From Balanoglossus misakiensis (taxonomy: Eukaryota; Animalia; Hemichordata), in assembly GCA_040954595.2 (NCBI GenBank), contig CM082577.2:3057703-3121702 (forward strand): 64,000 nt of DNA, written 5' to 3'. Positions 1-63,969 of this stretch are shown here, one piece after another. How positions within the stretch are numbered: the first letter of the stretch is position 1; each line of letters opens with the position of its first letter. The notes beneath the pieces are model-generated. The model did not search any database. It was not told where the DNA came from and was given only the letters and a program-made list of their open reading frames with translations. A program made the translations under genes and the position numbers.

Positions 1-72
1 CTGTACAGTCAGTGCTGCTCTGCACGCATGTACCCAGGTTGTTGCATGGATTTGGTTGACAGGGGTTGATTG
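1..72 (-). CDS. 8-Cys EGF exon E1 (truncated by window edge)
   Basis: CAG acceptor at 73-75; [23 protein letters not shown]... Confidence 0.85.

Positions 73-63969: not shown

Follow-up and report, generated by a model that had tools for sequence, protein, structure and literature searches.

The window, that is the whole 64-kb stretch of DNA that was analysed, was scanned for EGF-like cysteine patterns, which gave 161 matches on the minus strand against one on the plus strand. Exon calls were anchored on cysteines and splice signals, resulting in 162 complete exons on the minus strand, from 63969 to 323, and a partial exon at 72..1, read by eye, that is cut by the window end. Each exon starts 11 nt before the first cysteine (C1), after AG, and ends 7 nt past the last cysteine, before GT or GC. 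The acceptor was AG in 162 of 162 exons (CAG 133, TAG 24, AAG 5), and the donors of the complete exons were GT in 161 cases and GC in one. One-module exons, 114–132 nt in size, made up 160 of the 162, and the other two exons encode two modules each, giving 164 whole modules and one partial, 165 in total. The 161 introns ranged from 108 to 1,127 nt (median 248). Spliced together, the complete exons encode a polypeptide of 6,683 amino acids (about 711 kDa) with no stop codon. These results agree with a preliminary description of the locus, which had counted 165 modules and about 6,700 amino acids in intact phase 1-1 exons, with both gene ends outside the window. The description had also reported no other domain type and no pseudo-exon, in line with the absence of leftover EGF pieces in the introns when searched with a module profile (best E 0.081) and of any other exon type seen in the window. 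The main features are as follows.

1..63969, minus strand: most probably an internal stretch of a single giant gene, with 165 eight-cysteine EGF modules in 162 complete phase 1-1 exons and one partial exon (exon anchoring, junction test)
63847..63969, minus strand: module 1, encoded by the exon at which the array enters the window; module 4 of Ptychodera flava XP_070579647.1 (P0092) matches it best (module alignment)
62174..62407, minus strand: double-module exon, modules 5-6, no intron between; this pair was modelled; 66% identical to P0092 residues 319-397 (exon anchoring, alignment)
23629..23754, minus strand: module 101, the sole exon with a GC donor (exon anchoring)
10026..10268, minus strand: second double-module exon, modules 136-137 (exon anchoring)
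1..72, minus strand: partial exon, module 165; C1, C2, C3 and the extra cysteine Ca visible (by eye)

In both double-module exons (62174-62407 and 10026-10268) the 6-residue linker between the modules is intact, which is most simply explained by precise intron loss.

The codon at each exon junction is split, the first base lying in one exon and the remaining two in the exon that follows. With the exons in genomic order, none of the 161 junction codons was a stop or cysteine codon, compared with 14.4 ± 2.6 in random exon order (minimum 5 in 20,000) and with 20 of 160, 17 of 159 and 15 of 158 when one, two or three exons were skipped. The exon order has therefore been selected for consecutive splicing, which argues against the possibility that the exons represent several separate genes or a pool of alternatives, the way exons are used in Dscam. 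This possibility has in its favour that all exons are phase 1-1, so that skipping keeps the frame, and that the Ptychodera model XP_070579647.1 has 8 modules only and no counterpart of window module 4. However, skipping one exon would introduce a stop or a ninth cysteine at 20 of 160 junctions as opposed to 0 of 161 in genomic order, neighbouring exons are co-adapted (covariation at lag +1, below), and neither another type of exon nor the boundary of a gene was seen within the window, the longest intron being 1,127 nt. We consider a pool of alternatives or several genes extremely improbable and, with high confidence, interpret the window as one giant gene with a continuous frame, open at both ends, which may have occasional isoforms.

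Assembled contigs of two DNA runs from one sample covered 30 of 30 bins of positions 1-14400, but may be the window's own source and are thus not independent support. Among the variants in the same positions, all 12 indels in a partial set of the 55 were intronic. Nine exonic codon alleles, drawn from 40 of 292 substitution rows, included five synonymous and four missense changes, none at a cysteine and none producing a stop, a sample too partial to weigh.

Identity between pairs of modules averaged 48% (range 28–78%). Four-fold sites in the 103 exons of the commonest length agreed at a frequency of 0.316 compared with 0.260 expected from composition, and are therefore nearly saturated. Module divergence and near-saturation of four-fold sites rule out recent amplification or an assembly artefact, and support an old, intact and continuous array. 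There was a weak signal of ancient block duplication (best 5-module diagonal 0.545 against a null mean of 0.503, p about 0.01), and no higher-order periodicity among modules was found by lag. The only sequence shared between introns was a dispersed repeat of ~95 bp in either orientation (25 blast hits). The earlier proposal of an old array, neither recently amplified nor artefactual, is upheld, with the weak signal of ancient block duplication as a correction.

Copies of the ~95-bp repeat are 72–93% identical, lie in either orientation and were located at about 10309-10404 and 9907-10003 and in the introns at 5137-5482, 14668-15097, 27435-27832, 31296-31570 and 41199-41591. Summed contig depth in the bins of this repeat was about 50,000–170,000 against a baseline of about 50–150, identifying it as a very high-copy short element of the genome; it had no match in Rfam. 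Intronic microsatellites with units of 4–5 bases were present at 15738-15850, 29280-29362 and 47921-48031. The palindrome TACATGTA occurs in 40 copies in the window, with about 2 expected from base composition; its enrichment is known from amphioxus, hemichordate and echinoderm genomes.

Cysteine pattern and composition of the modules

The preliminary description called the modules EGF repeats and missed their main feature: they are not of the ordinary six-cysteine type, as all 164 whole modules contain eight cysteines. These follow the pattern C1-x4-C2-x5-C3-x(3-9)-Ca-x4-C4-x-C5-x(2-3)-Cb-x5-C6, the first two gaps varying slightly in a few modules. The six-cysteine core spacing of EGF was found, with small variants, in 164 of 164 modules, and PF00008 was the best match for all five exons tested, two of them above the curated cut-off. 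The extra cysteine Ca is located in the major hairpin turn, between C3 and C4, always five residues before C4 (C4-5). The other, Cb, is located between C5 and C6 (C5+3), where it replaces the glycine that normally opens the motif G-[YF]-x-G and precedes the packing aromatic. The residue after Cb is Y, F or W in 162 of 164 modules, and a G stands three residues beyond Cb in 164 of 164. The linker between modules has 6 residues at all 163 junctions. Calcium-binding EGF modules carry the consensus D/N-x-D/N-E/Q before C1 and D/N at C3+2. The full N-terminal consensus occurred in 0 of 163 cases in the window; the partial form D/N-E/Q occurred in 40 of 163, in no case together with D/N at C3+2. A literature search by title or start of abstract, with most subscription papers outside its scope, returned no description of a chained EGF module, an inter-EGF disulfide or a related family.

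The 6,683 residues include 2 lysines and 9 histidines, with 474 acidic against 154 basic residues. N-glycosylation sequons were absent, compared with 82 ± 8 in shuffled sequences and 16.5 ± 3.1 when 102 modules were shuffled within alignment columns (lowest value 8 in 1,000). Sequon avoidance is real, but shared with other EGF proteins. Avoidance of lysine and sequons was considered as a marker of the family and rejected as not unique to it, since the modules of 18 of 438 other EGF proteins have none either. Matches to sequence consensus only were found for O-fucose in 46 and for O-glucose in 22 of 164 modules.

Pairing of the two extra cysteines

Every module of the window has both Ca and Cb, so the window alone does not decide how they pair. 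A set of 440 proteins was obtained from three protein searches and one profile search, and adjacent EGF pairs with linkers of up to 12 residues were counted; modules of unusual spacing and longer linkers were dropped and checked by eye. Among 8,806 adjacent pairs, Cb in module n occurred with Ca in module n+1 in 54 pairs, Cb alone in none, Ca alone in 4 and neither in 8,748. For 12 proteins selected for carrying the pattern, the corresponding table was 54/0/1/179 (1 mismatch in 234), compared with 35 mismatches for the reverse pairing, and 32 of the 76 modules with any extra cysteine had a single one. Since no more than about three or four protein lineages supply the positive runs, the 54 pairs are not independent. 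In all eight runs with both ends visible, the first module was Cb-only and the last Ca-only (two near-identical runs from Lytechinus, two from Amphiura and one each from Holothuria, Apostichopus, Glandiceps and Ptychodera). Isolated Cb-then-Ca pairs were found inside plain six-cysteine arrays of two proteins of the rotifer Seison and one ENA protein (P0205), with three further cases seen by eye. Exceptions were the last module of XP_070579647.1 and the decaying run of the crinoid protein P0343, which end in Cb with no Ca after, and a lone Ca, which occurred once in P0144 and also in a locust protein, in a primate Notch1 and in a fish EYS. Paired extra cysteines were absent from the matches to true Notch, Crumbs, EYS and fibropellin. 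In the window, Cb of one module is followed by Ca of the next at 163 of 163 junctions.

The order of Cb and Ca across modules, together with the Cb-only start and Ca-only end of runs, suggests that the extra bond joins module n to module n+1. Based on these sequence patterns, we think it very likely that a disulfide connects Cb of module n with Ca of module n+1, and strongly infer that it exists in addition to the three ordinary EGF disulfides (1-3, 2-4, 5-6).

Covariation within the window, analysed for five feature pairs chosen from an earlier scan of the same window, supports this pairing independently. Residues flanking Cb covaried with the hairpin length of the next module, with the residue that precedes its Ca and with the two opening bases of its exon (z 5.3–9.0 at lag +1). 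The same five pairs gave z ≤ 2.5 within the module or at lag -1, and ≤ 3.3 at lag 2. Block duplication would be expected to raise lags 0 and -1 too.

Other eight-cysteine EGF-like folds, such as laminin LE and integrin I-EGF, have their fourth disulfide within the module, and an equivalent intramodule bond between Ca and Cb would explain the even count of eight in every window module. In laminin-type LE the extra cysteine pair is C-terminal to the EGF core, unlike the window, where the extra cysteines lie between C3 and C4 and between C5 and C6 and segregate across modules in homologues. An intramodule bond is also contradicted by the 32 of 76 homologous modules that have a single extra cysteine and that lie at the ends of runs, arranged as inter-module pairing predicts. 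The weak covariation within modules (z ≤ 2.5) speaks against it too, as does the structural model described below, which resembles Notch EGF (Z 9.7) more than laminin LE (Z 3.1). We therefore regard an intramodule fourth disulfide as very unlikely.

The natural pair formed by modules 5-6 was modelled with AlphaFold (pLDDT 93, pTM 0.62) using an alignment of 37 rows, 10 eight-cysteine and 27 six-cysteine, a composition that may favour a rod; from a single sequence, pLDDT was 45. An EGF fold with a major hairpin is predicted for the window modules, with similarity to Notch1 (Foldseek E 1.8e-7; VIA Z 9–10). The whole pair fitted linear Notch1 EGF11-13 with an rmsd of 1.9–2.6 Å (4xlw, 1.9 Å over 73 columns; 2vj3, 2.4 Å over 75) and bent Notch1 EGF4-7 at 4.9–5.4 Å. 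The better fit of the predicted model to the linear form is consistent with the extended filament geometry that had been suggested for the protein, and a stiff rod is probable on this model. Between neighbouring EGF domains of the Notch type, the packing aromatic of one domain contacts the major hairpin turn of the next (PMC4826273). Cb adjoins the packing aromatic and Ca sits in the major hairpin turn; by analogy, the two cysteines occupy both faces of the contact that adjacent EGF domains make in rods of the Notch type.

The extra cysteines might instead bond between chains in a one-module stagger, cross-linking fibres or a mesh such as a coat, tube or thread. The same Cb-first, Ca-last pattern is expected of such a staggered bond, and pure EGF arrays are known to form load-bearing threads, for example octovafibrin (PMC10336842). 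However, the positions of Ca and Cb correspond to a known intrachain contact of neighbouring EGF domains (PMC4826273), single Cb-Ca pairs exist inside otherwise ordinary arrays, the linker is fixed at 6 residues and flanking residues covary across the junction from n to n+1. Bonding between chains is thus considered unlikely, compared with the intrachain bond from Cb of one module to Ca of the next.

Comparison with known EGF proteins and the proposed rod

In the textbook view of EGF arrays, each module has three internal disulfides and rigidity comes from calcium. Notch has up to about 36 EGF modules followed by LNR, a membrane segment and ankyrin repeats, and fibrillin-1 has 47 EGF modules interspersed with TB domains. 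Notch1 EGF11-13 and the calcium-binding pairs of fibrillin share with the window the EGF fold, the 6-residue linker, the aromatic at C5+4 and a linear pair geometry, the latter predicted in the case of the window. The rigidity of these pairs derives from bound calcium and packing, whereas the window has no calcium consensus and a cysteine on each side of the packing contact. They also differ in module number, with at least 165 in the window against 36 in Notch and 47 in fibrillin. In fibrillin, runs of calcium-binding EGF modules are broken by TB domains, whereas the 165 modules of the window are not accompanied by any other module. The Notch receptor has at most about 36 EGF modules compared with at least 165 uninterrupted ones here, the C-terminus of the protein being outside the window. 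A signalling or microfibril protein of the Notch or fibrillin type with an unusually long EGF arm would be in agreement with the closest solved structures and most database names, which are Notch-like, and with the O-fucose consensus in 46 of 164 modules. It is at odds with the calcium consensus in 0 of 163, the absence of TB, LNR or any other domain in 165 modules and the lack of paired cysteines in true Notch, Crumbs, EYS and fibropellin matches, and in our view has very little probability.

Drosophila Dumpy is likewise a gigantic extracellular filament protein rich in EGF, with 22,949 amino acids, 308 EGF and 185 DPY modules (PMC12723725). It differs from the pure array of the window, where the linker is 6 residues at 163 of 163 junctions, in being a mosaic with the 185 DPY modules, which have two disulfides (four cysteines), and with other domains, and the passage on it mentions no bond between modules (PMC12723725). 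Size as such, which had been presented as the novelty of the array, is matched by the 308 EGF modules of Dumpy, albeit in a mosaic (PMC12723725), and deposited proteins reach 91–97 EGF matches. Octovafibrin from octopus egg threads resembles the window as an uninterrupted EGF array without calcium sites, the mechanical role being that of octovafibrin; its 29 non-calcium modules have six cysteines and three intramodule bonds only, and it has terminal C-type lectins (PMC10336842). The avian eggshell-membrane protein CREMP is also a long tandem array of small disulfide modules, and is part of a structural fibre, but its modules have two disulfides, flexible linkers and few inter-module contacts (PMC12723725). 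In its proposed action the window array resembles the calcium-EGF rods of Notch or fibrillin and, as a structural filament, Dumpy or octovafibrin, but it falls outside calcium-binding EGF, fibrillin, Notch, Dumpy and laminin LE by the features that define each of them.

According to the proposed mechanism, the modules would acquire their three internal disulfides as they fold in the ER, while a fourth bond would tie the minor hairpin of module n to the major turn of module n+1. The inter-module bond would stand in for the absent calcium site and keep the chain stiff without calcium, and the load path would bypass the linker and run through disulfides. The rise per EGF module is 2.5–3.3 nm, and the rod would have a length of at least 0.4–0.55 micrometre. 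The best reading of the locus as a whole, which we consider likely, is one giant, likely secreted protein of at least 165 eight-cysteine EGF modules, connected by inter-module disulfides into a stiff, calcium-independent rod. The most likely role would be mechanical, as a surface spacer or tether or as a coat fibre; the mucus, egg-coat, adhesive and matrix roles suggested earlier are candidates only.

If this is true, a covalent link replacing a packing contact would be a second route to rigidity in EGF rods, and load carried through disulfides rather than through the linker would matter for protein materials. The sites of Ca and Cb name two positions where any Notch- or fibrillin-type pair could be locked, and the chained array bears on how flexible long EGF arrays are.

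Relatives and the ends of the gene

Short eight-cysteine runs with Ca and Cb in the same positions as in the window were identified in nine uncharacterised ambulacrarian proteins.

XP_070579647.1, XP_070564509.1, XP_077981950.1, XP_054770576.1, KAJ8026231.1: ambulacrarian proteins with short eight-cysteine runs
PIK61689.1, XP_072041414.1, XP_072051694.1, XP_033111997.1: ambulacrarian proteins with short eight-cysteine runs, continued

Unlike the window, these proteins have 4–8 modules per run together with HYR, SRCR, FN3 or 7TM domains; their automatic names are Notch-like, hyalin-like or adhesion GPCR. XP_070579647.1 from Ptychodera flava is colinear with the window, its modules 4, 5, 6, 7 and 8 corresponding to window modules 1, 2, 3, 5 and 6 (mean z of the best diagonals 2.6 and 3.0, next best 1.3 and 2.0), with 66% identity to the double exon encoding modules 5-6. 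It has 8 modules only and no counterpart of window module 4. Directly before its Cb-only first module is a hydrophobic, signal-like stretch. This stretch and the colinearity indicate, by similarity, that the array probably has about three further modules upstream of the window, preceded by a signal peptide, and that the protein is a secreted one of an acorn worm or another ambulacrarian. After the eight modules, XP_070579647.1 continues with a Ser/Thr stalk, a membrane segment and a Tyr-containing tail; this may be the true end of the protein, a short paralogue or a chimeric model. A membrane segment was predicted in 6 of the nine ambulacrarian relatives (a strong hydrophobic segment in 5 of 8 scanned, the ninth being a seven-helix receptor), which leans towards a cell-surface tether. 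Anchoring at the cell surface or in an apical coat, as a spacer or tether, has roughly an even chance on this evidence.

The search for orthologues in relatives that had been suggested earlier thus yielded short eight-cysteine runs and the colinear XP_070579647.1, but no full-length orthologue among the proteins searched (77-2,000, 1,167-3,330 and 366-1,166 amino acids, and the best 150 representatives). The protein searches were crowded by ordinary EGF proteins, so that this negative result argues only weakly for a true absence, and the taxonomic range given here is a minimum. The ESM Atlas returned generic EGF clusters only, and the Ca/Cb pair was absent from PDB sequence matches (Notch, Delta and coagulation-factor EGFs) in the five alignments examined. 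The locus represents a very large gene without counterpart among the predicted-protein matches listed, and its array points to a family whose members are entered in databases as Notch-like or hyalin-like.

On balance, we favour the view that the module is an undescribed type of EGF with a covalent bond to the adjacent module, which echinoderms and hemichordates use in short rigid spacers and which had a separate origin in rotifers. The window would encode a rod of half a micrometre or more with about 650 disulfides, nearly lysine-free and lacking N-glycan sites; at the animal surface, it would be the calcium-independent equivalent of fibrillin or Dumpy. The Cb-then-Ca pairs of the Seison and ENA proteins possibly reflect such a separate origin of the same link. 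They are present in giant six-cysteine EGF arrays as isolated pairs (P0122 and P0144 from Seison nebaliae, and P0205 from ENA), the Seison arrays having 91 and 97 profile matches.

Five homologues (P0016, P0112, P0130, P0360 and P0097) contain an HYR-associated cassette of 4–6 chained EGF modules that is conserved in sea urchin, brittle star and sea cucumbers, and these proteins are lysine-poor as well (0–0.6%). In XP_033111997.1 (P0343) from Anneissia japonica, residues 8-206 form the N-terminal arm of an adhesion GPCR and consist of a near-identical, recently amplified eight-cysteine run, the last two modules of which are decaying. The model of XP_070564509.1 (P0221) ends, at residues 556-637, in a fragment of an amiloride-sensitive channel and is probably an annotation fusion of two genes.
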